A DNA stretch of 64,000 nucleotides from Tubulanus polymorphus (lineage: Eukaryota > Animalia > Nemertea). Both the position numbers and the translations under genes were made by a program. The stretch spans positions 7,056,275-7,120,274 of the forward strand of contig NC_134032.1 of the NCBI RefSeq assembly GCF_964204645.1, given 5' to 3'. The notes below the pieces were generated by a model, which saw nothing but the letters and a program-made list of their open reading frames with translations, made no database searches and had not been told where the DNA came from. Positions 4,711-59,405 of the stretch are shown here, in pieces (position 1 is the stretch's first letter; each line of letters starts with the position of its first letter).

Positions 4711-7700
4711 TCATAATCTCATTTTCTTTTGTTTCTTCTCTTTTGAATTTATATATTCATCTAAATTGCAACCATAGGCGACTGTGTGGATTCCATCATC
4801 TAAAATATATCTTTTATCATCAAATGGGTTTAGACTTATCTTCTCTATCTCTTCAATATACATTTCATGATCTTCAGATCTTAAACATTTCATTTTATGT
4901 TTTCTAACTTCTTCATTAAATATACAATTGATGTAATCTTTAAAATGAATATTTTTTTCTACTACACTTTTGGTTATTCCTTTTAACTTTTTTAGCTTCA
5001 TGAGTTTTGGTTTTATATGAATACATTTTAGATCTAATACCAATGAACTCTATCATTTCTTCACCACCTAATTCATCCTTAAACTTCCCAGGAACTTTTT
5101 TATTATCATTGCTAAACAATTCATGATTTTTAGGATAATTACTAAAATCAAAATGGTGTTTTAATGTTTTTAAATCATCTGTTATGTTATCAGTTTTTAT
5201 CTTTAATATGTAACTGTCAGTATCAAAGTATAGAATTTCTATGTGTTTTTCTCCAAAATGAGGTTGTAGTATATTATAATAAAATTTATACATTAGGAAT
5301 TTTGAAATTTCTAGAACTGCAGCACCAACATAAATAAGTTTATTGAACTTCATTGAAGTTCTTTTCATTTTAACTGCTGCTAAATTTTCATCAAATATTC
5401 TGTTACCTATAAACTTAGGATATGATTGTAAATGCCTAATTCTTTTACCATTACTGACTAACTCGATATCATTTCTATTTCTAATATTTTCACAAGTCTT
5501 ACCATAGAATGCATTATTCATTAGTTTGAAGAAATCTTTTTCAAAATCAGTTTTAGATTTAGTTCTCTGTGTAGTATTAAAATCTATATATTTTTCTAAC
5601 CATTTAGATTGACTGAATGAAATATATCTATGTACTTTTTTTAATATCATTCCTTGATTCAAATAAAACTTCAACATTCTATAATGCACAACGTAATTAT
5701 ATTTATCTTCTTGAGTTACCATTAACTTTTCAGTATGAATATGATTATCAGGTTTAATTCTTTTTTGATAATTTGATAATTCTTCATGAGTTACAGTTTT
5801 ATGTTCGGGACAGTAAGCTAGATTTCTAGATTTGAATTTAATATTTTCAGGATATTCTAAATCTACAACGAAGAAGTAACCAATATCTGAATCATCTGCA
5901 ATATCTAGAATTCTTTTCTTCCAATCAAATTTATCAATTTGTAAAACTTCAGTTATTTCAAACATCCCATAAGGTTGTGGTTCCATCATTGCCCAACCAT
6001 AAAGATTATTTGCATCTATGTATAATAATTTATATCCAGGATTATCATTTACATTGAAATATCTATCACCCAATACACCTGAAACACCTCCTCTTATAGA
6101 TTTTTCAAATAATAGTAATTGATCTATATTTGTTAACAAATCCATTTTTATATCTGTAAATTTTAATCCACAATCCCATGTTAAACCTGGTGATGAATAA
6201 CAATGACAAGGATCAATGTTAAAATATTTTAGGTTTACATCTCTAAACCTTTCGAATATATCGGTTAATAATAATACATCTGATTTTAAATATAAATCTA
6301 CTAATTGCCCATGATTTGTTATTTTGAAATGATTCCAAATATTCAATGTTCTATTATAGACTTCATCTTTAACATATTCATTTTTTAATTCATCATAGAA
6401 TTGTTCTTTCAATAATTCAGTTATTTTAAAATCATTATGATTTTTATAGAAAGAATATGGAATAGCGCCTTTATATCTCATTAATTGAAAATCATCATTA
6501 TTTGGGTAATATTCTTTTAATATCTTTAATTCATCATCAACCAATGATTTTGATAGATTGTCTAATGAACTTCTTAAAAATCTATATGAATCTATAAATC
6601 TTAAGCATCCAAATTGGAAAGATATATAATTCTCAGATGTTTTAGCTAACATTCTAAATTTATAAGTTGGTATTTTATCTTTTGATCTATTTGAATTTAA
6701 TATTTCTATTTCATTATTGATTTCTTCTATTTTATGACATAACTGTTTGATGAATAAATGCGCGTCATACCCCGATAGATTATGAAATATAACTGGTACA
6801 AAGTTAATTTTCTTAGCTTGTAAGTTACAATTCTCATGTGCAGCGCCTCTAAACTTTCCATTCAAATGATCATGATCTCTTACTTTTTTATCTTTATAAT
6901 TAAATATCTTTTCACAATAATAACATTTATCTGCAAACTCAAATTCTTCTTTATCTTCTTCTGTCATAATTATTTCTTTATTTGTATTCAATAATTTACT
7001 AAATCTTATTTCATATTCAATTAATAAGTCACAAAAATGATTGATAACATTTTCATTTCTATAATTATAATATTCACTTTCGATTAGTTCTGGATAATTA
7101 GATTTAATATATAACCCGAAAGCTGCAGCTGATTGATGAATCTTTTTAATAGTATTTGTTATTGGTGGTTCATCTGAATAATCACTTTCATTAGAATTTA
7201 ATTTCTTTCTTTTATAATATATATCTTTTCTATCTTTATCTGTTAATTCTTTATTTAATGATTCAAAATCTCCATATATTACAAATGGTACTTTATTTTT
7301 GTAATCATATTTTTTGAATTCTAATATTTTATCTTTTTCATTTGGTAAAACTAATTTACAATAATCATGATTATCACATAGTTGTTTATGATTTAATAAT
7401 GCACCTTCAGTTCTGAATTTATGTAAACATTTTCTACATAGATATATTTTATTATCAAAATCATTTTCTGATTTAAAAAATAAATCGATTTGTTTAATCC
7501 ACATGTAATGATTCTCATAATATAGTATATCTATAACATCATTTTAATCATAATCTTTTGATAGGTATAAAGGTTCTAATGTATAATGTTTAATATTATT
7601 TCCTTTTGTATTTGGTAATTTGATTAAATCAAATACATTTATCTTTATATTATTATCTCTTTCTATTTTTGGGATGTTTTTAATTCTAACAGGATACTTA

Positions 7701-8722
7701 TCTATCTTATAATTATTTTCAAATGGTTTATAATGAGTTAATCTAAAACTATGTGTAATATCTTCTGTTGGATGTAAACAACTTATTATAGCCCATAGAA
7801 AACATTTATCATCTTCATTTTGTATATTTATTACACCATTAGTTTTAAATGGTAGTTTAATATAACTTGTTCCATTTATACTATCATCTTTATAATATGA
7901 TAAATTATTTTCATCAATTGGTTTTGATTTAGTTAACTTATTATATTTTGTGTTATAAACATGTAAAGTTATAAATATTATCTCATCAAATATTAAACCA
8001 GATCCTTCAAAATATTTCTCTTCTATTTTAGTTTTTATTTCATTATAACATTTATCTAATTTATCATCTATATGTTGTTTAGATATAATATGTTGTGAAT
8101 GAGAATTTATATTATATATTGGTTTATCTTCAGATTTTATAAACTTTACTTTAACTGATATACTAATTTTTGGATATTCTACGTTTGTAATTATTTTTAT
8201 TATTTCTTTCATATTTTCTAAATGTTTTTTATTTTCTTCTAATGTTTTACCTTTATGAAATTTAAACTCGATAGCTGCTGGACCAATATCACTTTTAAAT
8301 GCTTCGGTTATCTCTATATCTTTTTTATTATCTAATGAATTAATATAATTTCTTACATCTTCCATGTATGGTCTTTTATTGTTTAATTTATTTTTTATTC
8401 TTTTAATTGTCTTCTGTTTCTTATCGTTATCATTATCAAAATAATCTTCACCTAAAATATCATTATTCTTATTTCTAATATGACTTATAGATTTTAAATG
8501 TTCTTTATAATATCTTTTATCACTGAATGATTGATTACATGTATCACATTTGTATGTTTCTTTTTCATCCTTTAATTCTTCTAATTTATTTTCTAATATA
8601 TCATCTTTATACTCTAGTTTCAATTTATTCTCTAAATGTGTTCTAGTTTTATTGTGTCTTGCTTTTTGGGATTTATCTATATCGATATTACATGTTGGGC
8701 AGTAGTACTTATTTGCTTCCAT
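4711..8722 (-). pseudogene. polB: Protein-primed family B DNA polymerase, intein-free; nonsense at 7544-7546 and +1 frameshift near 4985
   Basis: Motifs YGDFES, FHNLSGYDAH, YIDANNLYGWAM, KLMNNAFYGKT, YFDTDSY, KMYSY; three ORFs join into one gene colinear with B pPolB. Confidence 0.95.
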
Positions 8723-14236: not shown

Positions 14237-14296
14237 ATTAGCGCTTTTATATTAAAAAGTGTGTTTATTTTTGGAAAAAAGCAAAAAAAAAATAAT

Positions 14297-33207: not shown

Positions 33208-33551
33208 AGTAATTAGAAAAGTGGGGTTTCAGATCAGAGGTCGAGAGGTCGAGACACCACTCATCACAGCTAGGCTCTAGTGAGAACGGACGATTGCTCT
33301 GTGACACACATATACAGTGAGTGCGCGTAACAGCAGCTGCGCGTGGATAGATCGATACAGTGAGTCTCTACTGAGAACGGTTATTAACGCGTGTGCTATT
33401 ATTGTAGTAGTACAGTGATTGCGTGTCAACTGTACCCGGATAAATAGATGCTGTGAGGCTTGGGTGAGAACGGTTAATAGCGTGTTTGTTATATACAAGG
33501 GGAAGTAATCCCCACTCATCACCACAAGTAATTTGTTTTCCTTATAAATGG
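33208..33551 (+). repeat. Left TIR of B
   Basis: Inverted match to 49869-50212 with about 5 mismatches; ends at the ATGG of the terminal gene. Confidence 0.95.
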
Positions 33552-33874
33552 GAGATAGAAAAGCATTCTTAGCAACAATAAATAACAGAATAAAACCAGC
33601 AAAAAAACAATTTGAAATAAAAAAGTTAGTTGATGTTACAAAAGAAATTGAACATAAAATATTGAAATTAGAAAAGATAAAAACTAAATATGGAGAGAAA
33701 GTATCAGCTAATTTAAGCTACTGTAATGTTAGTACATCACGAGAATTTAAAGTGTTTTTACCTGATAAATGGGTTACATTGAGTACGGAGGAATTGAAAG
33801 ATTTAGTAGGATTTAAAATAATATATCATGGGAAAAATGAAGACGGTCATCATGATTTAGAAATTGTTGATTAA
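33548..33874 (+). CDS. 108-aa putative SSB-like protein
   Basis: Homologs in A and C; function inferred. Confidence 0.75.
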   Translation: MGDRKAFLATINNRIKPAKKQFEIKKLVDVTKEIEHKILKLEKIKTKYGEKVSANLSYCNVSTSREFKVFLPDKWVTLSTEELKDLVGFKIIYHGKNEDGHHDLEIVD

Positions 33875-33904
33875 ATTTTTTAAAAAATAAATTAATAAAA
33901 ATAA

Positions 33905-34011
33905 TGAATATCTAGAATCCGAAATGACTTATCTGGACAATTTAATTGCTCCGCATAGATGGTGCCATAAACAGCACCACACAGTGATAGACAAAAGTAG
34001 TGAGATATTCA
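33905..34011 (+). ncRNA. Candidate structured RNA motif, copy in element B
   Basis: TGAATATCT/AGATATTCA closing stem, conserved internal loop and covarying inner stems. Confidence 0.5.
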
Positions 34012-34052
34012 ATTAATTAAAAAAAATTATTTTTTTGCTTTTTTCTAAAATA

Positions 34053-34421
34053 TTAATCCATTTTTTTTATTATCAATTTTGGAATTTCAGAAGTACTTTC
34101 ATTTTTGATAGCAGTTGGTTCAGAATTACTAATATCATGAATTTTATTTGATTTCTTATACCAACTACACCCAATCAAAATGAATACAATTACAAATCCA
34201 ACTGTAAAATATAAATATTTATCAAATATTCTACTATTAGAAGGAGTAGAAATAACAATATTTTCACCATTTTTATTAACATTTTTATTACTTATTTTTT
34301 CTTTTACAGCTTTTTTATATTCTTGTGATTTAATTCCTAATTGCCGAGACCATTCAATTTGTTTCTGAGTTCTCGGTTTTTTCTTCACAGTTAATTCCTT
34401 CACTTCTTTCACCTCGCTCAT
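34053..34421 (-). CDS. 122-aa basic single-TM protein
   Basis: KKPRTQKQIEW N-terminus; TM YLYFTVGFVIVFILIGCSWY. Confidence 0.7.
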   Translation of the reverse strand: MSEVKEVKELTVKKKPRTQKQIEWSRQLGIKSQEYKKAVKEKISNKNVNKNGENIVISTPSNSRIFDKYLYFTVGFVIVFILIGCSWYKKSNKIHDISNSEPTAIKNESTSEIPKLIIKKMD

Positions 34422-34953
34422 TTATTATAGAAATATTTTTACTTTCAATATTTGAAAATGTTATAACTCCAGTTGATAATAATGTCATAAATCCACCTAA
34501 TTGAAATGATAAATATCCAATCCATTTATTTAATTCAGTCATAACTAAATAATCATTTTTTAAATCGGAATATAATCTATTTTCATCTTCAATTGGTAGT
34601 ATATAATTACATAATTTACTATAACCTTTTACTACATTTTCTGATATCGCGTCATTAATTTTAGCTGTTCTCGCGGCTTCATAAATCTTAAATAATCTAA
34701 TAATTTCATCTGATTTCATTGTATCTAATTCATTATAAGTTAAATTTTTACCGACAAAATTTTTACATTTTCCAGATGCTATTAATATTTCTAATTGATG
34801 TTTACAATAAAGATAATATTCATAATTATTATTTGTTGTAACATTATTTAAAGCACCATCATCTGGAGTTTGTTTCTGTTATTCCTAAATCATCTAAAGT
34901 TTTTTCAATTGGAACATCACCATTTTTAGATTTTATTTTCTTTTCACCTCCCA
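34354..34953 (-). pseudogene. Conserved hypothetical protein, frameshifted near the N-terminus
   Basis: TAAATG start near 34953; frame upstream of the 121-aa ORF reads KHQLEILIASGKCKNFVGKNLTY. Confidence 0.6.
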
Positions 34954-34982
34954 TTTATATAACAAACAAATTAGTTGTGTTG

Positions 34983-35235
34983 TTGCAACTAGAATTCAAC
35001 TAGAATGTAACTAGAATTCAATTAGATTAACAAGCTAGTTGAAATATTGTTATTTTTGTTTATTTCTTGTTAAATCTAGTTGATTTTTGTTCCAACTACC
35101 AATAACTAGAATTCAACTAGAATGTAAATAGAATTAAACTAGATTAACAAGCTAGTTAAAATATTGTTAAATCTATTTGATTTTTGTTACAACTACCAAT
35201 AACTAGAATTCAACTAGAATGTAACTAAATATGTA
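34983..35235. repeat. Intergenic CAACTAGAAT direct/inverted repeat block, related to 11636-11760 in C
   Basis: Three AACTAGAATTCAACTAGAATGTAA units with interspersed CTAGTTG inverted copies. Confidence 0.75.
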
Positions 35236-35258
35236 ATTGATTAACAAACTAATTAAAT

Positions 35259-35866
35259 TTAAATAAATTCATATTTAAATGGGTGTTGTAATCTAAATAG
35301 TAATTTTGATCTTTTAATATTTTTCAACTTATCCATATATTCATTATGTAAATCATGTGGAATAATATCATTTTCCTCAAGTGCATTTTTCATCGATTTT
35401 CTATCTTTATTGTAGAATAAAACTAGAAATCTAATGTTTTCTCTAAAGTCTTTAACAATTGAATTATATTTTTGATTTAAAACCCAAGTTGTTATCCCAA
35501 AATGTCTCCCAGAGAAAGCTAAATAGCATAACTCACTTTCTCTAACTTTTGAATCATGTAGATTAGCACAATCATCTATAATGAATAATGTATTTGATCC
35601 TTTATAAATATCAATTGCTATTTTTATACAATTATCTAAATTTTCTTTTACTGTTTAGGATCTAATATAATAAATTTATTATTCCTAGTAATATTTTTAT
35701 CATAAGTTTGATTAAATTCATATGTTGGACAAAATAATACTATATTATCAAAATAGTTTTCATAAACAGTTTCTAATAAATGTAATATAAAATAAGTTTT
35801 TCCACAATTTGTTACACCAGAAATTAACATATTATGAGGCTCAAATATGAATAATTCCTTATTCAT
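35259..35866 (-). pseudogene. A32/FtsK-like packaging ATPase, frameshift near 35652
   Basis: Walker A GVTNCGKT; shifted frame gives Walker B LFIIDDC and SGRH...LNQ motif. Confidence 0.9.
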
Positions 35867-36994
35867 TTATATATTTTTAATTTTATTTGATAATATCCAT
35901 TCATTGAATTTATCTGGCCATCCAACCCATTTTACTAAAGAATATTTTTTTCTTTTAATAGTTTTTGTTTTTAATACTTTTTCAATTTTATATTCTTGTT
36001 CTAGATTTTCAGTAGTTAAACTTAATTCTTCTTCGTAAAAGTAGCCATCAACTTCTTCACCATCTAAATCTTCTAATTTATAGACATATGGTTTTGTTGT
36101 TATTACCTTTTTTATTTTATATATTTCTCTAGTAAAATTTCGATCGTATCCTTTATCAAATATCTTTTTATACTTAGAAATTCTAACATTTTGACCAACT
36201 TTAAATTTAGGTTCACCAAAATCATCTATAAGAAATGCTCCATATAAATTATTCCAAACAATTTCAGCATTTTCAGGTTTTCTAGCATCAATAGGTTTCA
36301 TTCCAATAGAAGAATGATAAGAATTATTATATCCTTCTATCAATTTTGGTAAAACATCAATCCATTTAAAAGTATTATTTGCTGTAAAATATTTCCACAT
36401 TCTTGTTCTTAATGTTCTATTAAATCGTTCAACAACTGCTGCTTTTTTATCTGATTTTGTTGAAAAATATTTAATATTATGATTATCTAAGAGTTCATGA
36501 ACAAGTGAATTATCAAATTCTTTTCCATCATCAAATTGTATTTTTTCTGGTTTTAGTTTATCATCCGAAAGAAATTTTCTTAAAACATTTGATGTTTGTA
36601 CAGCATCTTTTCTATAAAGTGGGAAGCTCCATATATAACGACTAAAAATATCAATTATATTCAATAACCACCAATAATCATCATTATCTTTCTTAACATT
36701 TTTCATATCAATTAAATCTCCTTGCCACTGTTGATCTACATAACTTACCATAGTTTTACGAGTTTCATATTTTCTAACAATTTTTTTATGTGTTGTATAT
36801 GTTGGTTGTTCTAACATAAATTCATTTATATCTTTGTATTTAACTAAATTTTGTGGGATTATCTTATCTAATTTATCTTGTTTTACTTGACGCCATATAA
36901 GTTTGGTAGAAGAATAAGCAACCGAACTCTCAGGGTTGTAATATAAATTTCTTAAATATTGTTCTTTAGTATTAGGAGTTTTTTTACCACTCAT
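35867..36994 (-). CDS. Retroviral-like (rve) integrase with C-terminal chromodomain
   Basis: DDE triad QGDLID / QFDDGKEF / VVERFNRT; chromodomain YKIEKVL...LVKWVGWPDKFNEWI. Confidence 0.96.
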   Translation of the reverse strand: MSGKKTPNTKEQYLRNLYYNPESSVAYSSTKLIWRQVKQDKLDKIIPQNLVKYKDINEFMLEQPTYTTHKKIVRKYETRKTMVSYVDQQWQGDLIDMKNVKKDNDDYWWLLNIIDIFSRYIWSFPLYRKDAVQTSNVLRKFLSDDKLKPEKIQFDDGKEFDNSLVHELLDNHNIKYFSTKSDKKAAVVERFNRTLRTRMWKYFTANNTFKWIDVLPKLIEGYNNSYHSSIGMKPIDARKPENAEIVWNNLYGAFLIDDFGEPKFKVGQNVRISKYKKIFDKGYDRNFTREIYKIKKVITTKPYVYKLEDLDGEEVDGYFYEEELSLTTENLEQEYKIEKVLKTKTIKRKKYSLVKWVGWPDKFNEWILSNKIKNI

Positions 36995-37024
36995 TTATAT
37001 ATCCTTAATTTTAACTTTATATTT

Positions 37025-38270
37025 CTAATATTGAATACTATCTAATTGTGAATTTACAATATTTAATTGTGCGTCAGATATAATATAAATATGCATTTTA
37101 AAATTTTTGATTCCTTTATTCTTTTTCATAAATAATTGTATTCCATCTTTAGTGTTTTGTAGTTTTTTTCCAGAACCATGTAATGAATTATCCTCTGTTG
37201 TTCTAAAATCTAACCATAATGCATATTTATTACCGGTATAATAATCAATTTGATTAATGTTACAATTTTCAAATGATTTTATTTTTTCATTCATAAAATG
37301 TTTTTTAATTTCTACCCATTGATCTATCATTCTCATTCCTTGACAAAATATTTTATTCGCTATTCCTTCGATAGTTATTTCTACTTTTGTTATTTCAGGA
37401 TTATAATAATTGTCAACATTTATTGCGCCATTAGTATACGTTCCAATAGTAAAAAATATTAATATACCTTTAATAGATCTTCTAGGAAAGTTAATATTCT
37501 CATTTATTATTTCATCATTTGCATTAATAGTTACAGTTTTAAATTTATCAATATAATCATATAATAATGAAAATCCTTGATTGTATTGAGTTTGAATTAT
37601 ACTTGAAATATTTTCATCAGTTACTGTATCATATTCTAAACATATATTCGATAATTTATAACTCATATCTTTATTAACGCTAGATAATACAATTTCATTT
37701 ACAGGAGCAAATGTTATCTCAAATATAATATCTTCTTGAATTGCGTATTTATATAAAGGTGCATTATTATTTATCAATTCAAAGTCTAATGGAATTTTAT
37801 ATTTGCTTCCATATATACTTTTTATCAATTTATCTACATCATTTGTTAATATTGCGCTATTAGCTTCTGATCTTAATTTATTTTGGTTTTCTGATTGAAT
37901 TCCTTGAAATATCATATTATTTCTATTTTCTTTAGTTAACCATAAATCTTTATAATGCATAAATAAATTATAATCATCTAATGAGAACTGTTTCCGGACC
38001 AATCTTTATTGTTAACTTTTTAATCAAATATCTTCCAACATTATCAACAACATAATTATTATTATTACCGATTACTTTTATATCGGCTGATAAATAAATA
38101 CTATTTGGAACATAAAAAGTATTTTGTGTTAATCTAGGAATTCTAACATATAAAGTTTCATCGGGATTAATATTTGAAGGGTTATGAGTAATTATATGAT
38201 GTGATCTTTCTGCTTTAATAGCATTAGATATTCTATGATTCTTCAAAGGACTTATATAACTCCCACTCAT
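37025..38270 (-). pseudogene. Major capsid protein (double jelly-roll), frameshift near 37985
   Basis: 98-aa and 325-aa ORFs join into a ~415-aa beta-rich protein adjacent to integrase and ATPase; only MCP-sized candidate in a complete element. Confidence 0.75.
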
Positions 38271-38294
38271 TTATTTAACAAAAAAATTAATTAT

Positions 38295-39731
38295 TTATTT
38301 TTTGATATTTTTTGATATCATGTTTACTAACCCAAAAATAATAGCACTTACAACTGTGATTAAAAATAAAATAATATGTTCAGCAGCAAAGTTAATAATG
38401 TTTCCTGCAGATTTCAATATAAAACCAACAATTGAAGCAATAACTCCTGGTAGTGCTGCAGCAGATTTTTTAGATAGTTCCCATAAATATTTTGCTAATT
38501 TCTTTAAACCATCCTTAACTTTATCTTGTATAGAATTATTGCCTGGAGGTTTATCTGGTTTATTGGGAGTGGGAGTAGATTTTAAAGCATTTGATATAGC
38601 TAAACCAATTGTTGTAAATAACATAGTTACAGCTGTTAGAATTGAAAGAATTGTTATTCCTTCTAATTTAAATAATAATCTTATTCTGTCTTTTAGTGAT
38701 ATTTCAGAATTTGGTTTAATCAACAAATCTTTAAAAATAACTTTTAATCTATTAATATTATAATCATATGATTTTAACAATAATTTAATTTCTTCTTTTT
38801 GTAATTCTATGTTATATTCTAAATCATCTTTTTCTTTTTCTAAACGTAATTCTTTTTGCCTATATTCTATTTCATCAATTACTTGATGATCTAAATCGGA
38901 CTTTAATTGTTCTATTTCTTTATTTTTATCAGTTAATTCTTTTTCTAAAGTTCTAATTTTAAAATCTCTTATACTTTTATTATGTGCAATTTTATCAGAT
39001 GCAAGTCTTATACTAATAATTTCTCTAATTGCTTTATCAGAAAATATATCTAAATCTTCTAATTCTTGATCTGTTGCATCAAGTAACCCATTCGGTAAAA
39101 GTTTTTCAATTGGAACTTTATTTGATTTAAGTTTACTATTTTTGGAAGTTATATTCTGTTCAGAAGTTGTTTCTGTTTCTGATTTCTTTTTGATTATTTC
39201 AAATAATTCATTAATTCTTTGTTTAAATACATCTATATTATCATCTATTTCTTTTTGTGTAACATCAGTTATTTCATTACTATTGCTTATTATTTTAATT
39301 CTATCTGGTTTTAATTTTTCTAAAGTTGATTCTGATAATATTTTATTTTTATTATTTTTATAAGTGATATCAATATAATAATCACCTTTCAAACGATAAT
39401 AACATTTACCATTATCTAAAAATTTTAATTGATCTGCTAAAAGTCCAACGTCTTCATCATTTATGTTAAAATTAGATTTTTCAATTAAATCTTCTAATTT
39501 AGGTATTTTGTTTAAATTATCTAAATCTTGTTTTACTAAATCTGGGTCTAAATTTTCAGGATTTAATTGTGATTCAGCATTTTTAATATAATCAGGCATA
39601 TTCAAATTATTATTATATTCTGGCTCGGTACCATCATTAAAACTTGTTTCATCAAAATCAGGTGGTTGTTCATCAGTTATACCAGGTTCATCAAAAGGAT
39701 CCATTCTAATATCTCCACCTTCTACATCCAT
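38295..39731 (-). CDS. 478-aa acidic/coiled-coil protein with C-terminal hydrophobic helices
   Basis: Long heptad region, then GITILSILTAVTMLFTTIGLAI, an amphipathic helix and IILFLITVVSAIIFGLV. Confidence 0.8.
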   Translation of the reverse strand: MDVEGGDIRMDPFDEPGITDEQPPDFDETSFNDGTEPEYNNNLNMPDYIKNAESQLNPENLDPDLVKQDLDNLNKIPKLEDLIEKSNFNINDEDVGLLADQLKFLDNGKCYYRLKGDYYIDITYKNNKNKILSESTLEKLKPDRIKIISNSNEITDVTQKEIDDNIDVFKQRINELFEIIKKKSETETTSEQNITSKNSKLKSNKVPIEKLLPNGLLDATDQELEDLDIFSDKAIREIISIRLASDKIAHNKSIRDFKIRTLEKELTDKNKEIEQLKSDLDHQVIDEIEYRQKELRLEKEKDDLEYNIELQKEEIKLLLKSYDYNINRLKVIFKDLLIKPNSEISLKDRIRLLFKLEGITILSILTAVTMLFTTIGLAISNALKSTPTPNKPDKPPGNNSIQDKVKDGLKKLAKYLWELSKKSAAALPGVIASIVGFILKSAGNIINFAAEHIILFLITVVSAIIFGLVNMISKNIKK

Positions 39732-39748
39732 TTATATAATAAAAAAAA

Positions 39749-41164
39749 TTAAAATTTAAAATATAATATTCCTCCGATTATAATTCCTATACAAGTTATA
39801 GCTAATTTAGTATTTTCATGTGATTTATTATCATCATTTAGTTTAATTATATCATGTTGAATATTATCAGTTCTATTATCACCGTGTGGGTGCCGTACGG
39901 CACCATTTTCTGATGTATTATAATCTTTTATTTTAGAATCATTATTTAATTTAATATTCTTAGTTTTAGTTTCTGTTGATTGAATATGTTTTTTATTTTT
40001 TTCACCTTCCATTAATTTTGGAGCAGTAATAATCTTTTTATTTATATCATTTAATCCAAATGAATTATTTATTGTCGCAGTTTTAATTAGATTATTATAA
40101 CCAATTATATTTCCCATCTTTAATACTAAATCATTAGAAATAATTAATAGATTAGGGCCTATACAATAATTAAGTCTTACATGAGATTTATCTAAATAAT
40201 TTTGATATCTTATAATGTTTTCTGGAATCGATCTATTTTTATCATTATGAATTGAATCTTCAAATAAAACTTTAAATTGTTTTTGTGTATCGAATGATGT
40301 ATTCAAATTTCCAATTATCGGTGATCTTGTTTCAACTTGTGATCCTAGAATACAAATCAAATAAGTTCTAATAGATTGATTTATTCTTTCTATACCTGAT
40401 TTAGTAAAACCTTCACTATTTTCTAAAATAAAATAAACCCAACCATTATTGTTTTCTTGTTTTAAATTATCATAAAATTTTGGTAATTTATTGAAATTTA
40501 ATGTTTCTAAATCCTTTGTTTCTATTTTACCATAACCTAATTTTTTATTATAGATATTATAAAAGCTATTAGATGGTATGGGAAGTGCACAATATTCTGC
40601 AATCTTTCTAGGGCAAGGAAGTGATCTTATTGTTCCAATTTTTATTCTAAAATCAGAATTATTTATATCTATATTAAATTCATTGCAAATTTTATAAAAC
40701 TTTGATAAATTAATATTATTATCTAATTCTTTAAAATATCTAGATCCTGGTAAAGCGCACTCTAATTCATTTAATATTATTCTGATTTGAAAGTATGTAT
40801 GAAATCTAAATAAACTTTGAATTAATTTATATTAAGAATTATTCAAATGATCATTCCAACTAATTCCACATCCTGTTGTTGCACAATAAACAGCAAAATT
40901 TAATTGGTTCTGCCAATACTTCATATTAGATTTTAATAACCATTGTTTTTCATCTTTCAATTTTTCAAAATCAATTAAATATACATGAAATATATTTTCC
41001 ATCTTTGCATTAAAATTATTAGTTTCAGTAACATAAATATATAAATCAATTAATGAATCTAAAACTTCATTTCTATATGTAATATCTTTATTAAAATCTA
41101 TTGCTGGAATATTATATTTAATTGATTTATTATATTGGAAAGTTTTTGGAAAACTATCTGCCAT
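39749..41164 (-). pseudogene. Conserved Polinton protein with C-terminal TM, nonsense at 40832-40834
   Basis: Colinear with 611-2044; A reads AAA where B has TAA. Confidence 0.8.
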
Positions 41165-41204
41165 TTATATAACTAAAAAATTAATAATTTATTAATTCTT
41201 TTAA

Positions 41205-41606
41205 TTATTTATCTTGTTCTTCAACTGTTATATGACCATTTAAACTTATTATATAATCTAGTGTATTCTTTAATTTATTAATTTCTTTTATATTAGTTTT
41301 GATTTTTTCTTTATTACTTTTTATATTTAATTTTGAACTTATACCAGTTAAAACACTTGAACTTAATCCTAACACACCAATTGATATAGCTAATGGACTG
41401 AATATTGCTAGAAATGTTATTACAGAACTAATTGTAACCGAACCACTGATAATCAAATAATATATAATTTTACTTTTTAAATATTTTTTCTTTTTTATCT
41501 TTAAGTCACTTTCAAATTCTAATATTTGTTTTTCTAAATATGTTTTTAATTTAGTTTTATTTATATCATGAGGAATAATATCAATACTATCAACTTTATC
41601 TTCCAT
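41205..41606 (-). CDS. Two-TM protein, slightly truncated by nonsense codon
   Basis: Homolog of 2062..2496. Confidence 0.75.
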   Translation of the reverse strand: MEDKVDSIDIIPHDINKTKLKTYLEKQILEFESDLKIKKKKYLKSKIIYYLIISGSVTISSVITFLAIFSPLAISIGVLGLSSSVLTGISSKLNIKSNKEKIKTNIKEINKLKNTLDYIISLNGHITVEEQDK

Positions 41607-41625
41607 TTATTTAGCAAAAAAATTA

Positions 41626-42048
41626 CTAATTAGTAAACTTATGAGCAACAAATATAACAATAACAGTTCCGCCTAAAATCCATATTATTTCATATTTCTG
41701 TTGTTCTTTACTCGGGGTATAATAATCTGATAATTTAGGTTTGTATAGATGTAATTTTTCTTTATTTGTTACTGCGTTATATAAACTCATTGCATCATCA
41801 ACTGATTGAAAATCTCTATGTGAAATCTTCTGATCATATAATTCTTTGTTAATATAATCCATATAGTTTTGTCTCTTTTCTCTATATTCTTCTGCATCTT
41901 TATTATATTTCTCTAACGCTAAATTATGTCTTCTTTGTTCTCCTAATGAACTATTTTTATCAATATGTTTAAATAAATAACCACCACCAGTAAATGCTAA
42001 AGCGTTAACAATTGCCGATCCTATAATAGTTATAATTGCAGAAGCCAT
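41626..42048 (-). CDS. 140-aa putative membrane-active protein (PW-like)
   Basis: Homolog of 2516..2938. Confidence 0.55.
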   Translation of the reverse strand: MASAIITIIGSAIVNALAFTGGGYLFKHIDKNSSLGEQRRHNLALEKYNKDAEEYREKRQNYMDYINKELYDQKISHRDFQSVDDAMSLYNAVTNKEKLHLYKPKLSDYYTPSKEQQKYEIIWILGGTVIVIFVAHKFTN

Positions 42049-42073
42049 TTATTTAGCAAAAAAAATTATGCAT

Positions 42074-42295
42074 TTATATGGGAGGAATATATTTTTGTTT
42101 TTCCAAATAATCAATAGTTAAATTAGATAAAGTAACTGCTAACGTTAATTTCAAAATATCATTGATATCAAATCTATCAACATTAACACTTCCCATTTTG
42201 AATACTTTTTTTAATACCATTGAATAACCAACAGTTCCAACTGATAGTAATGCGCCATTATATAATCCAGTTATTATCCACTTATTATCACTCAT
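42074..42295 (-). CDS. 73-aa hydrophobic protein
   Basis: Identical to 2963..3184 protein. Confidence 0.75.
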   Translation of the reverse strand: MSDNKWIITGLYNGALLSVGTVGYSMVLKKVFKMGSVNVDRFDINDILKLTLAVTLSNLTIDYLEKQKYIPPI

Positions 42296-42298
42296 TTA

Positions 42299-42643
42299 TT
42301 AATCAAAAAAATTACTATCTTCAAAATATTTAGTTATCTTAGTGATGATTAATTCAACATTTATTTCATTACTAGTTTTATGATTATCATATATTTCGGT
42401 TAATATGTTTTTAATATCATCGATGATAAAATCTTCATCTAATTCATAAAATCTTAAAGACTCGGTAATCTTTTCTACATTAAAAGTTTCTTTATCAATT
42501 GTTGTTTCATACTCAAATGTTGTTTCATTAGAAAATGCAATATTTTTGATATGTGTAATTACATCATTAATGTTAAATTTCATTTCTTTACAATGTTTAA
42601 AATCAAATCCAAAACATATACTCGGTCCAACAGTTATATTCAT
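42299..42643 (-). CDS. 114-aa hypothetical protein
   Basis: Homolog of 3185..3526. Confidence 0.7.
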   Translation of the reverse strand: MNITVGPSICFGFDFKHCKEMKFNINDVITHIKNIAFSNETTFEYETTIDKETFNVEKITESLRFYELDEDFIIDDIKNILTEIYDNHKTSNEINVELIITKITKYFEDSNFFD

Positions 42644-42659
42644 TTATATAATGAAAAAA

Positions 42660-43457
42660 TTACTCTCTACATCTTATAACTAATTCATATATCACAGGAA
42701 AGTTATTTAAATCAATTAAGTATCCATTATGATTTCTAATTTCTAATCTAAAATTATTAAATTGAGGAATACAAGGTTTGAAATCACATTCAGCTAAATT
42801 ATAATTTATTTGCGTTCCAAATTGTTTAACATTCTTCAATGGTAAAATGTTTAATATACTAGAATTACATGTTGTATCTTTAGTTGCTTCGAATGTTTTT
42901 GTAGGATCGATTAAATTGCAATAAATATAAAAGTGTGTAAAAGGTATTATATTTGAGTTACCATGTTTGTTTCCACCAAATTGATTTGGAGTAATTCCTA
43001 ATAGTTTAGCTATAGGTTTTTTTACTGTGTAAGTATGTCTTCTTGTCATCAATGGATCAGATTTAACAAGTTTAATAAGTTCATCATCAAGCTTTATTTT
43101 AATTTTATTAGAGCTCTCACTTTTTATGAATTTAATATTAAATTTGGAATTACCATTACCTAATCTAATCCGAGCTTTTCTATTAATTTCTTGCGCTAAT
43201 GTTTCTAAATTATATAATCCTGGTGTAAGCATAAGTTGAATCCATTTTTTTTCAAGTTTATCAAAAATAAGAAGGCTTCTATGTTCATCAGTTTTATCCG
43301 ATATATTATAAAAAGAATTACATAAACTTATATTTACTAATTTTAAATCTACACAATTCTTAAATTCTCTATCTAATTGTACTAATAAATTATGAGATTT
43401 ATAATTTATAAGTTTTCTAGAATCAACAAATATTCTGTATTCTTTTAATTCTACCAT
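42660..43457 (-). CDS. Minor capsid protein (penton)
   Basis: Homolog of 3544..4305. Confidence 0.75.
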   Translation of the reverse strand: MVELKEYRIFVDSRKLINYKSHNLLVQLDREFKNCVDLKLVNISLCNSFYNISDKTDEHRSLLIFDKLEKKWIQLMLTPGLYNLETLAQEINRKARIRLGNGNSKFNIKFIKSESSNKIKIKLDDELIKLVKSDPLMTRRHTYTVKKPIAKLLGITPNQFGGNKHGNSNIIPFTHFYIYCNLIDPTKTFEATKDTTCNSSILNILPLKNVKQFGTQINYNLAECDFKPCIPQFNNFRLEIRNHNGYLIDLNNFPVIYELVIRCRE

Positions 43458-43514
43458 TATTTATAACATAAAAAAATTACACTCATCACCACAAGTAATT
43501 TTTTCCCCTAATAA

Positions 43515-44816
43515 ATGGATGAGAAGATAGCATGCGAAATTTGTGGTGAACTTATCAGAAAGAGTAATATGGCTCGACATATGAAAAAACATGATGAAAA
43601 TTATAAACCCCCTAAACAAAACTGTCCAAAATGTAATAAATTATTCTCAAGAAATTATGTTAAAAAACATTCAGAGAAGTGTAGAATTAATGGCGCAACG
43701 GCTAATGTTGATAGTAATTCTGCTGAAGTTGAACCTGAAGTTATTTGGAAAAGACCTTTCTTATTCTATGATAAGGATAATATAAAAGATCATTTCTGTG
43801 AGCCTTGTCAAGTAAAATATAACCCCGAAAATATAGAAGATTGGGAGAATCATCAATTTCGTAAAGCACATATAGATAAAATTTCTAATAAATTTGAAAC
43901 TGAATTCAATGAAAGAAAAAATAATTTATTAGAAAAAATAAAATATGAGAAAACGTTACTAGATAATAAAGAAACAGTTGAAAAGTTAGAAAAACAATAT
44001 AATGAATTAACAAGAAAAACATATTATTGTAAATATTGTAAATTGATTATTACAACAAGTAATTCAAATCTACATAATAGAACAATAAAACATAAAGAAA
44101 ACGTAAGAAAATACCAAGAGCTTAATGAAGATCTATTACCAATATATTATAAACAAAAATGCCCACAATGTATTTATGCGACCTTAAGACAAGAAGGTAC
44201 TATGTTATTTTGTGTTGAATGTGGATGGCAAAAGAATTTATGGGGTGAAGAAAAAACTAGAGATTTTCTCATAGAACCAAAATTAAATTATCTAGATGAA
44301 ATTTTTAAAATATTTTCTATAGAAGATCATACACCAGAATATATGCAATGGCTTGAAAAAATGAAAATAATAGAAAATAAAAATGGTGAAATAACTAAAA
44401 AAGATATTATAAAAACAATTATTCCACCAACATTTAACACAAAACAAAAGAAAATGTATTTATATTTATTATTTAACGATTATTATGAAAAACCTAAATT
44501 AACAGAAGAAGATATGGAAAATATTAAAAAAATATTCAAACAAATATTAATGTATCATTTGGAAAATAGAATAACAGATTCAATAAATTATGAATTCTTT
44601 TTAAATAAGATTGTAAATTATTTAAACATAGATATTATAATTCCATTTGACGAATTAACAAACAAAAAGAAACAAAGAGAGCGAGATGAAATGTGGAACA
44701 AGATAGAAATTTATTTAAATGAGAAAAATGGAATTGAAGAAGAACCTGAACAATTAAATGAAAATGAAGAAGCCAATAGTGATTTCGAGTTTGATGATAT
44801 TGATTTTATGTTTTAA
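43515..44816 (+). CDS. 433-aa multi-zinc-finger protein
   Basis: CEIC..H..H, CPKC..H..C, CEPC..H..H, CKYC..H..H and CPQC..CVEC clusters; acidic tail. Confidence 0.8.
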   Translation: MDEKIACEICGELIRKSNMARHMKKHDENYKPPKQNCPKCNKLFSRNYVKKHSEKCRINGATANVDSNSAEVEPEVIWKRPFLFYDKDNIKDHFCEPCQVKYNPENIEDWENHQFRKAHIDKISNKFETEFNERKNNLLEKIKYEKTLLDNKETVEKLEKQYNELTRKTYYCKYCKLIITTSNSNLHNRTIKHKENVRKYQELNEDLLPIYYKQKCPQCIYATLRQEGTMLFCVECGWQKNLWGEEKTRDFLIEPKLNYLDEIFKIFSIEDHTPEYMQWLEKMKIIENKNGEITKKDIIKTIIPPTFNTKQKKMYLYLLFNDYYEKPKLTEEDMENIKKIFKQILMYHLENRITDSINYEFFLNKIVNYLNIDIIIPFDELTNKKKQRERDEMWNKIEIYLNEKNGIEEEPEQLNENEEANSDFEFDDIDFMF

Positions 44817-47800
44817 TGGCCATAAGGTAATGTTTTTATACCATCATCTAAAATATGCCTTTTATCATCAAATGGATTTAAACTAGTTTTTTCAATTTCA
44901 TTTATGTACATTTCATGATTTTCTGATCTTAAACAATTCATTTTGTGTTTCATTACAATTGATTTATATAAACACTTTATATAATCTTGAAATTCTATAT
45001 GTTTATCAACCACATGTTTTGTTATTCCTTTTAACTTTTTAGCTTCATGTTCTTTAGTTTTATATGAATACATTTTACTTCTTATCCCAACAAATTCAAT
45101 CATTTCATCACCTCCTAATTCATCTTTAAATTTACCAGGAATCTTTTTATTATCATTGCTAAATAGTTCATGATCTTTAGGATAATTGCTAAAATCAAAA
45201 TGATGTTTTAATGTTTTTAAGTCTTTTGTTATGTCATTTGTCTTGATTTTTAGTATGTAGGCGTCGGTATTTTTTGGATTAATGGGAACCCAGAATTGAA
45301 TGTTCCATCATCTGTTGATAAATCATAAACATAGTCAGTTGGGTTATATATTTCAAATAAATCTTTAACTTCTTCTGTTAACTCATTTTCTACATGGCTT
45401 AAATTAAAGCAATTTGGTTTAGATTTAATCAATCCAATATTCATATTAAATCCTAATGAACTGCATAATATATTCAATCCTGATATAGCAACTTTTCCTT
45501 TTTGAGCTAAAGATATTGTTTTGCGGTTTTTGAAACTTTTTGAACCATCTGCAGCATAGAATCCAATGAAGAACCATTTTCTTAAATTATTTTTTGCATT
45601 TAATACATAATCTGGAACTATCTTTTCTTTTGTTGAAGTATTACTTTTCACTATTGCATGAATATAGAATTCATCATTATATTCTATAGCAAAATCTTTA
45701 GGATTATTTACAAGTATTCTATAAACTGCTGTTGATTTCATAACATCCATGATTCTAAATGTTTTATGTGAATAAACTTCTTCACAGAATTTCTTAATTC
45801 TTTCTAATAATTTTAAGTCTTGATTGCATAAATACCAACAATATTTAGTTCCACTAACATAATTATACACACCTGCTGAACCATCGCCCATGAAAAATCC
45901 TTTGATAAAATATTCTTTTTCTTCCAATGTTTCGGGTTCTATATTATAAATATTATCAATTATTTCATCAAATGACATATGATTCATTCTTGGGTAAAAT
46001 CTTTTATGTAATAATTCATCTCCAATTTTTATATCAGTTGGTTTTATTTCATCACCATTTTGTTTAATTAAACTATGATCTTCAGTAACATCAACAAATC
46101 CTAATTCAGTTCTAACTCTATAGATTTTCTTATTTGTTTTATGTCTAATAATATTCTTTAATTTTTTCCATCCATTTCTTGTCCAAACATCCATTAATCC
46201 ATTTATTTGTATTAATTCTTTTTCACCGTATGAAATATAACATTCATTTTGTTTTGGAATTATTTCTGAAATTCTTCTTACCAATATTTTATCATTACAT
46301 TTTAATAATATTGGGGTGTCAGCTGTTACAGAATCAAAATATAATATTTCTATATGTTTTTCTCCAAAAAGTGGTTGTAAAACATTATAATAAAAATCAT
46401 ACATTAATAATTTTGATACTTCTAAAACAGTCGAACCAATAAATATAGGTTTATTAAATTTCATTGATGTTCTTTTTAATTTAACTGCTGTTAAATAATC
46501 TTCAAATCTTTTATTTCCTAAATGTCTAGGACTTGATTGTAAATGTCTTAATCTTTCAGAATTATTTACTAATTCAATATCATTTCTATTTCTAATATTT
46601 TCACATGTTTTACCATAAAAACTATTGTTCATTAATTTAAAGAAATCTTTTTCAAAATCTGTTTTTGATATGGTTCTCTGTTGAGTATTGAAATCTATAT
46701 ATTTTTCTAACCACTTCGATTGATTAAATTCAATATATCTATGTACTTTCTTTAATTTCATTCCTTGTTTTAGATAAAATTTTAACATTCTATAATGAAC
46801 AATATAATTGTATTTATTATTTTGAGTAAGTATTAATTTTTCCGTAAAAACATGATCTTTCGGTTTTACTTTCTTCTGGTATTCACTTAAATAACTATCA
46901 TCTACAACTAAATGTTCAGGGCAATAAGGTAAATTTCTTGTTTTAAACTTTATGTTATCAGGATATTCCAAATCAACTACAAAGAAATAACCAATTGGTG
47001 CTTCATCTTTTAAACTCGTAATTGCGCTTTCCCAGTCAGTTTTATCATCATTTTCAACTTCAGTTAATATAAAATTTTTGTATGGTTGAGGTTGCATCAT
47101 TGCCCAACCATATAAATTATTGGCGTCAATATATAATAATTTATATTCATCATTTGCTTTAAAATACCTATCTCCCATAACACCACTAATTCCACCTCTA
47201 ATTGATTTTTCAAATAATAAAACCATATCTGGTTCTTTTAATAAATCTAATTCTACATTTGTATATTTTAAACCACATTGCCAGGTTAAACCAGGACTTG
47301 AACAACAATAACAAGGGTCAACATTAAAATGGTTTAGATTAACTTCTCTAAACTTTTCAAATATATCTGCCAATATCATAACATCTGATTTTAAATATAA
47401 ATCAACTAATTCACCATGATTTTTCATATTAAAATGGTTCCAAATATTTAATGTTCTATTAAAAACTTCGTCTTTCACATACTCCTCTTTTAATTGATCA
47501 TAAAATTGATCTTTTAATAATTCTGTTACATTAAAATCATCATGTGTTTTATAAAATGAATAAGGAATTGCGCCTTTATATCTCAATAATTTAAAATCTT
47601 GTTCATTTGGATAATAATATCGAGTTATAATAAAATCATTATCAACTAATGATTTTGATAAATTATCTAATGAACTTGCTAGAAATCTATAAGAATCTAA
47701 AAATCTAATGCAACCAAATTGAAATGAAATATAATTTTCAGATGTTTTAGCTAATAGTTTAAAATCATATTTTCTTACATTTGCTTCATTCATAGCATTA

Positions 47801-49872
47801 TATTCTTCTATTTCTTGATTAATTGCACCCAATTTTCCCGATAATTGTTTTATAAATAGATGGGTATCATATCCTGATAAATTATGAAATAATATTGGTA
47901 CGAAATTTACTTTTTTAGCTTGTAAATTGCAATCTTCATGAGCAGCTCCACGATATTTTGAATTCAAATGATCATGATCTCTAACTCTTTTATCAAATGA
48001 ATAAAAACGTTTTTCACAATAACAACAATGAGTTGCATAATTAAAATCAATTTCATCTTCTTTTGTCATAACTATTCTTTTATTTTTGTTTAATAATTTT
48101 GCAAAATCACTTTCTAATTCAATAATTTTGTTATAAAAATCATTAACTACATTTTCACCTCTAAAAGAAATATATTGACTTTCATATAATTCGGGATAAT
48201 TTGATTTGATGTAAATTCCATAAGCAGCAGCTCTTTGATGAACTTTTTTAATTGTATTTATAATTGGTGGGTCTTGAATTATATCTTCATTTAATTCATT
48301 TCCTTTATCCATTGATTTTAATAATTGCTTTTTGTTATATATTTCTTTTCTATCTTGATCAGTTAATTCTTTATTCAACGATTCAAAATCCCCATAAATT
48401 ACAAATGGAACAATATTTTTAAATTTATGATTAGTAAATTTCAATTTATAATCTTTTTCTGCTGGCATTATTAATTTACAAAAATCTTTAATATCACATA
48501 ATTCTTTATGTTTTAGTAACGCATTCTCAGTTCTAAATTTAGATAAACATTTTCTACATAGATAAATTTTACGATGATGATCACTTTCTGTTGTTCTAAA
48601 GAATAAATCAATTTGTTTTAACCACATATAATGTTCATTTTCATCTTTTTTGTAATATAACAAATCTATAGCATTTTCATCGTCATAATATTCTGTTAAA
48701 TATAAAGCTTCCAATGTATAATCTTTAATATTTTCACCTTTTGTCTTTGGTAATTGCATTAATTCAAATACATTTATTTTTAAATTATTAATTTTTTCTA
48801 TTTTAGGAATCATTTTTATAGTTACTGGATATTGATCAATTTTATATAATGTTTCATATTTCCGATAATCTGTTATTCTACAAACATTTTCCTGCGTTGG
48901 ATGTAAGCAACTAATAATTGACCATAGAAAACATTTATTATCTTCATTTTGAATATTTATTACTGCTTTTGTTATAAATGGTAATTTAATATAAGATGAT
49001 GCTTTAATATCCTTTTCTGTTGTAAAGTTTGAATCATTTTTAAACATTTTATTACTTTTTGATGTTTTATTCCTTTTTGTATTATAAACATTTAAATCTA
49101 AATATATAATTTCATTCAATGTTAAGCCAGAACCCTCAAAATATCTTTCTTCAATATAACGTTTAAATTCATTTAATATTTTTTCTAACTTCTCTTTTAT
49201 TTGTGTTTTTGAAATTATTTCTTCAGAGAGTGTTTGAATATTATAATCCATTTTTTCTTCTGACTTTATAAAACTTACTTTCCCAGAGATACTAATTTTT
49301 GGATATTCAACATCTGTTATCAAATCTAGTAATTTTTCTATTATTTCATTAAATTTACTATAATCTTCTATTGTTGTACCTTTAAAAAATCTAAATATAA
49401 TAGCTGCAGGACCAATTTTACTATGTAATGTTTCTAAGATTTCAATTGTATCTTTTATTTCTAGTGAATCAATATAATTTCTAACATTTTCCATGTAAGG
49501 TTTATTTGAAATGGATTTAGTTTTTGAAGTTGATTCTTTTACTTGTTGAGGTTTATTATCAAAATATTCTAATCCTAAAACATTTTTATTTAAATTTTTA
49601 TAATGTTTTTGTGATTCGAGATGTCTATTATAATTCCTTTTTACTATAAATTCATTACAAACTTCACATTTTATTTCATCCACATTCATATTTTCTAATC
49701 GTTCTTTTCTTTCATTGGAATTTTCTGGAGTTTCAATATCTATTACATTTTTTATATGATTTAAAGACTTTTCATGACGCGATTTTTGAGATTTATCAAT
49801 GTATTTTTTACAATATGGACAATGATATTGATTTTCATTAACATCAATTTGTTCTGTCTTATTCTCTTCCAT
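44813..49872 (-). CDS. polB: Protein-primed DNA polymerase B with intein; one-base frameshift at 45270-45275
   Basis: N-terminal zinc fingers, OTU-like DNKCFLWS...EHY, EndoVII-like RDHDH...AHEDCN, exonuclease and polymerase motifs; adding one A joins the 1540-aa ORF to 44813..45103. Confidence 0.95.
45269..46332 (-). mobile_element. Intein with LAGLIDADG homing endonuclease (~355 aa)
   Basis: YFD|SVTADTPI...VTEDHSL...FIKGFFMGDGS...FFIGFYAADGS...VYDLSTDDGTF...QKN|TD; absent from the A pPolB. Confidence 0.93.
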
Positions 49873-50212
49873 TTATAAGGAAAAAAAATTACTTGTGGTG
49901 ATGAGTGGGGATTACTTCCCCTTGTATATAACAAACACGCTATTAACCGTTCTCACCCAAGCCTCACAGCATCTATTTGTCCGGGTACAGTTGACACGCA
50001 ATCACTGTACTACTACAGTAATAGCACACGCGTTAATAACCGTTCTCAGTAGAGACTCACTGTATCGATCTATCCACGCGCAGCTGTTGTTACGCGCACT
50101 CACTGTTTATGTGTGTCACAGAGCAATCGTCCGTTCTCACTAGAGCCTAGCTGTGATGAGTGGTGTCTCGACCTCTCGACCTCTGATCTGAAACCCCACT
50201 TTTCTAATTACT
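49869..50212 (-). repeat. Right TIR of B
   Basis: Inverted match to 33208-33551; includes the pPolB ATG. Confidence 0.95.
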
Positions 50213-51383
50213 CATTTAGTATATTCTATTGTCATTTTATCATTTATTTGTACTATTAAAAAGCCAAGCGGCGAAGGCTCGTAGTTTTGATGCGAGGTCA
50301 ACCCTCATTTGGTTTCAATAGCTGGTCCTCTGATCAGAAAACATCAAAACACTGAATATGAAAATGACATTTAGTATTTTACAATACGGCACTTCGCATT
50401 TGCCTCGGGTGCAGATTGGCAAATAGATCGAACACTTTTTCTGGGAAAATATATCCCCCCATTGGCAAAATTACGGACCCGACTTTCGCACCCAACGCAG
50501 CCCCTGGCTACGGGGTTACGTAAATTTGAGTGTAATCATGGAAAAGGTGATTTTCTTGTGCTTCAGTCGTTCGGACCTTGGTTCACAAAGACTACTCCAG
50601 CTGATAGGGTTTGATTGATATTTTCGATCACTTCGTTCATATCTTTCTTCTAATCCAGAGATATGAACGAAATGAAGGGATAAAACTGGAAATGATATGG
50701 AGAAAAATTTCAACAACGTGCCTGGGTAAAAAGGTTTTGTAGCCGACCAATATGGCTATGTGGTGTAAAGCTTTAAAGTTAGTGGATTACATGTGGTTGT
50801 TTACTTAGGACGCTAGGTTTTTATGCGAAATATATTCATTTTCTTGATTTGGGGAAAGTTCGGTGATAAGTCCAACCCTTGATAGAACGCGTACAGAACG
50901 ATTTTAGCCCATTTTCAACACTGAATAAGCTTTTCTGTTCGACTTCTTGTGAATTTTATCTAGTGGAGGTATATAAAATGTGTATTTTAATGATTTCTTT
51001 TTCGAGTATCGATTCCTTTTCTGAAGACATAGCAGCGATCTTATACACAGAATGATTAATGAAAAAATGATTCTCCAAAAAGTTCATCGAGCAGCAATCT
51101 CCCGCATTACATCCAACAACCCCCTTGATTTTGACGATTTTACTCTACTGTAAATTCTATCAATTATCTTAACTGGGTCAAGGAAGTGTAAGTTTCCGGA
51201 CTAGGTCAACTACGTACGTACCATCTGTTTGGCCGGAGTCTGAATGCGCGCAATTTATTTCGAGAAGTCGCACGAAGCAAAATCGGGTAGCAACTTTACT
51301 TTAGAACTAAGGTCTAATAATCTATCGAGATGTGTAGCAAAAGTGATTCAAATGGATGGACATTTTTGTATGCTTCAGTTTAA

Positions 51384-59396: not shown

Positions 59397-59405
59397 GTGG
59401 ACAGA

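Follow-up and report, generated by a model that had tools for sequence, protein, structure and literature searches.

A Polinton polymerase interrupted in its catalytic motif

The window, i.e., the whole stretch of 64,000 nucleotides analysed here, carries a complete Polinton of 17,005 bp (copy B) and, at its left end and 41 kb away, a second copy (copy A; Table 1). The TIRs of copy B are 348 nt long, 98% alike and start with AG; its ends read AGTAATTAG, and the 6-bp TSD CATTTA flanks it on both sides. Together with a protein-primed polymerase (pPolB), an rve integrase, an A32-like ATPase and a probable capsid gene, these ends identify the element as a Polinton. For the capsid candidate, the Atlas look-alikes carry Capsid_NCLDV/DJR-like families on 10–18% of their members, a low recognition that makes the assignment a lead only, and a Pfam scan of this gene gave no match. 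Several genes of copy B are split by frame breaks, and no cysteine protease family was matched among its ORFs scanned with Pfam. A zinc-finger ORF of 433 aa (43515–44816, plus strand) lies in copy B and is lacking from copy A. Scans of the window for tRNAs and Rfam families found nothing.

Table 1. Position of the intein, its host element and the intein-free copy in the window.
Feature	Position	Strand	Basis
Polinton B, complete element	33208..50212	-	TIRs and TSD
pPolB N-extein, 1,180 aa, up to YFD of motif C	46333..49872	-	PF03175, E=3.4e-19
pol-c intein with LAGLIDADG homing endonuclease, 1,064 nt, 353 aa in-frame	45269..46332	-	HMMs, fold, alignment
Ser1, block A nucleophile	46330..46332	-	sequence
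Block B TEDH, intein residues 83–86	46075..46086	-	motif
First LAGLIDADG motif, GFFMGDG	45880..45900	-	motif
Second LAGLIDADG motif, GFYAADG	45544..45564	-	motif
Block F VYDLST, intein residues 335–340	45313..45330	-	motif
Frame break in mononucleotide (T) run at intein C-terminal junction	45270..45275	-	ORF translation, reads
pPolB C-extein, 151 aa, starting with TDAY	44813..45268	-	70/80 residues identical to copy A
Integrase (rve and chromo) of Polinton B	35867..36994	-	PF00665, E=1.8e-10
A32-like packaging ATPase of Polinton B, two frames	35259..35866	-	PF04665 in each piece, E=7e-6 and 4e-6
Probable double jelly-roll major capsid gene, two frames	37025..38270	-	Atlas look-alikes
Polinton A pPolB, intein-free allele, broken near 7544 and 4988	4720..8722	-	translation
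Copy A empty pol-c site, YFD|TDSY	5221..5222	-	alignment; ~300 X5 reads across

Further elements lie around the two Polintons. A 4.5-kb element (11194–15702) with Polinton-type AGT ends and the 6-bp TSD GAAAGA contains inverted copies of a 108-aa ORF, which is also present at the left end of Polinton B, as well as tandem arrays of 24 and 47 nt; it is probably a non-autonomous Polinton derivative. Positions 17845–31946 are occupied by a palindromic element of 14 kb, whose arms of ~5.5 kb are 99–100% alike and each carry an ORF with a PC4 domain (PF02229, E=3e-14) and a Cys-rich ORF; no transposase was seen in this palindrome, and its ends consist of repeats of TGACGTCA, CCGGAAGT and CAAGATGGCGGC, which we take to be CRE, ETS and YY1-like. 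At 51374–52614, a GTCGAC-containing unit of 21–22 nt forms inverted arrays ~860 nt apart, an arrangement that is MITE- or foldback-like. A PIF1 helicase spread over three frames and followed by a PHD-finger ORF is found at 59364–62604, preceded by an array of 35-nt tandem repeats (58810–59397).

The polymerase of copy B is split within motif C (YFD|TD). As the first-pass annotation had read it, the minus-strand ORF running from 49872 to 45250 continues HIEILYFD|SVTADTPILL...TEDH...GFFMGDG...GFYAADG...VYDLST, and the proposed identity of the insert as a homing-endonuclease intein held up in profile and structure searches. The nucleophile Ser1 and block A are recognized by the model of intein N-termini TIGR01445 (E=6.5e-7, 30.3 bits; cut-off 24.5), and both the TxxH of block B and the Asp of block F are in place. 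Intein_splicing gave E=1.4e-7 with 31.9 bits, which is below its cut-off of 35.8, and the two endonuclease helices with their acidic residues are covered by Pfam LAGLIDADG_3 (PF14528; E=1.4e-7, 32.1 bits; cut-off 22.5). An AlphaFold model of the intein built on 34 sequences (pLDDT 87.5) matched I-DmoI and PI- enzymes, and its best PDB matches are all homing-endonuclease inteins, namely TliVMA, PI-PkoII, PhoVMA, PI-PfuI and PI-SceI. With PI-PkoII, TliVMA, PI-PfuI and PI-SceI the insert shares the fold (Foldseek E=2e-16 to 1e-9, TM 0.41–0.64), whereas identity amounts to only 10–18% and these inteins reside in other host genes or kingdoms. Among viral structures, the model came closest to PolBs from a phycodnavirus, pandoraviruses, a marseillevirus and a megavirus. 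Moreover, the FNSGF-PLI end that follows block F is common to Polinton inteins and some giant-virus inteins.

The insertion point, after the first Asp of YxD|TDS, is that of the pol-c allele, which the available text of Ogata, Raoult and Claverie (2005; PMC549080) defines as YGD|TDS, and the closest kin of the insert are pol-c inteins. Judged by sequence and model, we consider it a real pol-c intein with a two-motif LAGLIDADG endonuclease, residing in what appears to be a new class of host gene.

Frame, reads and the intein-free copy

The C-terminal junction is not intact in the window copy as assembled. The insert of 1,064 nt is not divisible by three, the polymerase ORF terminates in-frame with FPLIQKIPTPTY*, and the C-extein (TDAY...) continues in another frame. 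The end QKN|TD given in the first-pass annotation is consequently not a reading of the window sequence, as the frame is broken at 45270–45275. As assembled, the copy has Thr+1 and lacks a terminal Asn in-frame with it, whereas a terminal Asn in-frame with a +1 Ser, Thr or Cys is present in all eight other full-length Polinton inteins; the assembled copy would yield a truncated polymerase, with the endonuclease domain upstream of the break. In an Illumina run (X5) from a study other than that of the four runs containing the stretch, but with the same species label, the length at 45270–45275 differs in 25 of 87 reads, as it does in contigs of the runs X1, X2 and X4, and at the break of copy A it differs in 308 of 419 reads. 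Neither break is therefore common to all copies, and each may be real in the window or stem from the assembly.

Read depth in run X5 was ~100–250 over the intein and 245–310 over its flanks, figures that have no single-copy baseline and are not copy numbers. Of 7,921 reads aligned, 552 were at least 99% alike, 3,857 fell between 95 and 99% and 3,512 between 90 and 95%, a spread which implies many diverged filled copies in the species. Twelve reads skip the intein and ~300 cross the empty site of the copy A type, so that empty copies are common as well. An empty allele with another +1 residue, suggested by nine skipping reads jointed at 46329, was dropped, as the aligner may pass one mismatch. 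No loose end indicating filled A-type copies was seen at 5221/5222 among the 24 listed of 130. The 20 intein variant places listed have the strongest support among more than 500 and are not a random draw; 14 of them fall on third codon positions (p=0.0009), as do 9 of 12 N-extein places, which hints at purifying selection on the intein.

These data bear on the question whether the intein is an artefact of assembly or giant-virus contamination fused into a polymerase. The window does contain several frame breaks in mononucleotide runs, as a faulty assembly could produce. However, intein and exteins agree in GC content (25.7% vs. 23.0 and 24.6%) and GC3 (14% vs. 11–16%), which also indicates that the intein is neither a fresh arrival nor part of a foreign contig; the intein and its junctions are covered by reads of the separate study, and an intein occurs at the same site in other pPolBs. 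Reads and other carriers thus already refute such an artefact, whose probability we regard as negligible.

A host other than an animal, i.e., a protist, a symbiont or a contaminant contig, deserves more weight but is still distinctly unlikely, and the Polinton intein itself would stand in that case. In favour of such a host, no gene pointing to a host taxon was recognized. Protist nuclear genes are known to have inteins, as described in the available parts of Gallot-Lavallee et al. (2023; PMC10710043). Against such a host, the element is integrated with a TSD amid other repeats in the 64-kb contig, and whole-genome reads of a second study with the same species label cover it deeply. Neighbouring repeats are, presumably, animal-like in look. 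In addition, the virion proteins of adintoviruses are apparently restricted to animals (Starrett et al., 2021; PMC8502044). On this indirect evidence, the setting of intein and Polinton is probably an animal genome.

Copy A offers the corresponding intein-free allele. Its polymerase segment from 7504 to 4940 reads YFD|TDSY without the 353 intein residues, and translation as well as an alignment of A and B DNA place the uninterrupted site where it had been reported. DNA similarity between the copies ends at 5223/45270 and restarts at 5218/46329; the absence is precise in copy A, in 105 relatives and in the 12 insert-skipping reads. The copy A polymerase itself has an in-frame stop near 7544 and a frame change near 4988. 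Between A and B (1–8722 vs. 39117–49872), DNA identity reaches 88% in the structural module (92–97% in places) and 74–80% in the polymerase, which suggests a swap of polymerase modules. The proposed homing between Polinton copies left no mark on this pair: there are seven differences in the 30 nt at the site, and identity is not raised nearby.

Relatives of the intein and of its host polymerase

In protein searches, an intein at the same site was found in the pPolBs P0049, P0051, P0057, P0060, P0066, P0322 and P0366 as well as in fragments, and also in hundreds of RNA-primed PolBs. Among 295 inteins cut from the matches, 257 follow YGD and 282 precede TDS. The relatives outside Polintons are mostly inteins of giant-virus-kind RNA-primed PolBs, which agrees with the origin from a large DNA virus that had been proposed, except that the capture extends beyond this element. 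Scans of metagenomes and viral contigs with the intein returned loci at 27–58% identity, of which the extracted full-length ones were not of the pPolB type; viral contigs searched with the Polinton-intein alignment gave no match.

In trees without an outgroup, a single branch separated the nine full-length, non-redundant inteins of the Polinton type from the remaining ones, both with FastTree (252 rows after 40 of 292 inteins had been dropped as near-duplicates; support 0.987) and with IQ-TREE C20 (51 rows after removal of 3 of 54 long or mis-cut rows; 100/98). All nine carry a one-residue deletion in the C-terminal block and the FN.GF-PL end; both features also occur in 21 of the remaining 42 rows, and these 21 group on a separate branch. 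The proteins of this GF-PL type that were scanned are PF00136 PolBs (10/10), and one of the inteins comes from the Imitervirales MAG GVMAG-M-3300020169-51; the other two GVMAG names are absent from the supplement searched. Inteins in giant-virus DdDP have been reported (Green et al., 2018; PMC5784728, in its available parts), and the GF-PL type is nearest to the Polinton inteins, with 38–41% identity over the whole intein and the deletion and end in common, whereas the Polinton inteins sit on a branch of their own, apart from the giant-virus pol-c inteins. A quick tree joins the GF-PL group with them as sister (90); the careful tree does not (60/66, on a long branch), and the AU test gave p=0.49. 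The comparison with giant-virus PolB inteins that the first-pass annotation had called for yields a nine-member Polinton clade, with the GF-PL group as its possible sister. Because the inteins are far more diverse among giant viruses, we infer that the transfer ran from these to a Polinton.

That different Polinton lineages each captured an intein from a giant virus could be read from the identities, since the Polinton inteins are 39–64% identical to each other, barely above the 37–41% that they share with the best giant-virus inteins, and from filled P0049, whose flank IIYGD resembles that of giant-virus polymerases, in contrast to the YQD, YLD or YMD of its empty relatives. Nevertheless, three trees group all nine behind one branch with strong support, and each of the nine has the C-terminal deletion, so that repeated capture is already disfavoured and very improbable.

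Polymerases with and without the intein were compared among the 120 nearest pPolBs listed, of which 4 are filled, 105 empty and 11 have no scorable site. The four nearest relatives of the B polymerase, including copy A (72–73% identity), are all empty, and the filled copies are dispersed over the polymerase tree (117 rows, excluding the 11 without scorable site and P0009, which was too short). In the filled P0057, P0060 and P0322, ASD or SSD takes the place of YxD before the site, where GFD or AMD is found in the empty relatives of these three.

Among the carriers, P0051 stands apart: its polymerase, which matches PF03175 with E=9e-32, is 16–22% identical to those of the other carriers, whereas its intein shares 43–52% with theirs and nests beside intein B (99/88 in the 51-row tree). 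Starrett et al. (2021; PMC8502044) distinguish Alpha PolBs, the archetypal PF03175 type, from Beta PolBs, which are <30% identical to Alpha; our labels follow this description, and by it the P0051 polymerase is presumably of a class other than that of the B-like (Beta-type) carriers. Within the Beta-type pPolBs, intein and polymerase identities largely run in parallel (80/78, 60/67, 86/83 and 47/44). As one intein clade extends over several pPolB lineages and Beta-type identities track each other, much of the intein history is co-divergence with loss.

Probable traces of movement were found in another Polinton family. In the cluster of P0366, filled proteins of 1,537 aa and empty proteins of 1,191 aa are near-identical and encoded on separate long contigs. 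Filled P0470 and empty P0481 differ in 16 of 1,191 residues, 10 of which fall within the 40 residues from –10 to +30 around the site (Fisher p=4e-12). This burst is a gene-conversion footprint of the kind that co-conversion during homing leaves; loss of the intein by conversion could look alike. The survey of filled and empty sites and of flanking co-conversion lent support to the idea of homing in this family, and not between A and B. Moreover, CHYMD, the flank of the filled copies, recurs in other subfamilies: it was seen in 13 of 20 filled proteins, including seven near-copies from one cluster, and in none of 83 empty ones. Three empty-site haplotypes, LHYTD|CDSM, CQYFD|TDAM and YHYGD|TDAM, coexist among the near-identical P0475, P0477–P0482, P0358 and P0362; they are possibly variants that escaped the endonuclease.

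The main rival to homing is an old capture followed by vertical descent with many losses, in which the endonuclease no longer homes and empty sites arise by conversion from other empties. The parallel identities of Beta-type inteins and polymerases fit this account, as do the three empty haplotypes in one near-identical family and the hundreds of reads from empty A-type sites alongside filled copies, and an intein clade restricted to the Beta type, without P0051, was not rejected by the AU test (p=0.076). On the other hand, it needs precise loss from 105 of the 109 relatives with a scorable site, intein B and the other Polinton inteins have kept both LAGLIDADG motifs intact, and the flank CHYMD moves with the intein across subfamilies; for P0051, vertical descent is excluded by the gap between polymerase and intein identity. 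Taken as a whole, we consider this rival unlikely, albeit the strongest of those discussed.

Probable capture, homing and loss among Polintons

The sequence comparisons point to a single old capture from a giant-virus PolB into a Polinton pPolB, followed by homing and loss among Polintons, as the probable history. The intein would have entered the homologous YxD|TDS motif of a pPolB, likely once and long ago, in one cell in which a Polinton and a giant virus both replicated; for this first jump, only the short conserved motif common to both polymerase types would be needed. Unbroken copies would be translated as a precursor, from which the Hint domain could splice itself out by means of Ser1, the block B His, the block F Asp, the terminal Asn and Thr+1, rebuilding the catalytic YxDTD. 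The endonuclease would cut the empty allele, and repair would copy the intein together with short flanks, so that the intein likely persists by invading empty Polinton alleles even as other alleles lose it. We infer the splicing and homing steps from established intein biology.

We lean, with somewhat less assurance, towards the wider reading that a mobile giant-virus pol-c intein resides in animal genomes, where it would home among Polinton copies and subfamilies, have crossed two deep polymerase classes, diversify active-site flanks and record the presence of a Polinton and a giant virus in one cell. Metazoan genomes are said to be without inteins, according to the available text of a review (PMC8529194), and this absence is also a premise behind intein-directed drugs. 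If true, a homing intein that resides in an endogenous virus-like element of many copies would be an exception to it, with protein splicing and LAGLIDADG homing at work in such a genome. The pol-c allele now reaches from RNA-primed into protein-primed polymerases, i.e., genes alike in little beyond the catalytic motif, although homing across non-alignable genes was deemed implausible by Ogata et al. (PMC549080, in the text available). In this context, the intein might serve as a genetic marker for Polinton replication alongside giant viruses and for Polinton lineages meeting and recombining in one cell.

Known systems share single features with the one described here. The Mimivirus PolB intein, as presented in the available parts of PMC549080, also lies in motif C (YGD|TDS there, YFD|TD here), has ~350 aa, starts with Ser, is followed by Thr and contains LAGLIDADG motifs. 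Its host, however, is an RNA-primed PolB of the viral/archaeal type and not a protein-primed PF03175 polymerase of an integrated Polinton, flanks outside the motif are not alignable, and the Polinton intein differs by the one-residue deletion in its C-terminal block. HNH and VSR inserts in Polinton pPolBs (Jeong et al., 2023; PMC10748475) likewise place a nuclease domain within the polymerase, and Krupovic et al. (2024; PMC11071308) suggested that these domains derive from intein invasions; in the accessible parts of these papers, the inserts occupy other positions and no splicing domain is reported, in contrast to Hint and LAGLIDADG within the catalytic motif here. In Anaeramoeba, virus-derived nuclear inteins move between paralogous polymerases of a eukaryotic genome (available text of Gallot-Lavallee et al., 2023; PMC10710043), but they reside in protist cellular genes and not in a multicopy endogenous virus-like element.

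The literature covered, which lay outside subscription journals, Repbase, bioRxiv supplements and the supplements of Jeong et al. (2023) and Starrett et al. (2021), held no report of a splicing intein in a pPolB. The word "intein" does not occur in the main text of Jeong et al. (PMC10748475), inteins are unmentioned in the main text of the adintovirus paper (PMC8502044), "polinton", "animal" and "metazoa" are absent from PMC10710043, and the available portions of PMC12220804, PMC3671162, PMC5718144 and PMC10710043 describe no intein in a pPolB.

Apart from polymerases, inteins of the pol-c kind were observed in type II topoisomerase look-alikes (P0054, P0152, P0199 and P0275; topoisomerase identity confirmed by Pfam for P0054), where they interrupt a D.D|TDG motif resembling the polymerase site. 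A non-allelic jump is a possible explanation for their occurrence in these genes.
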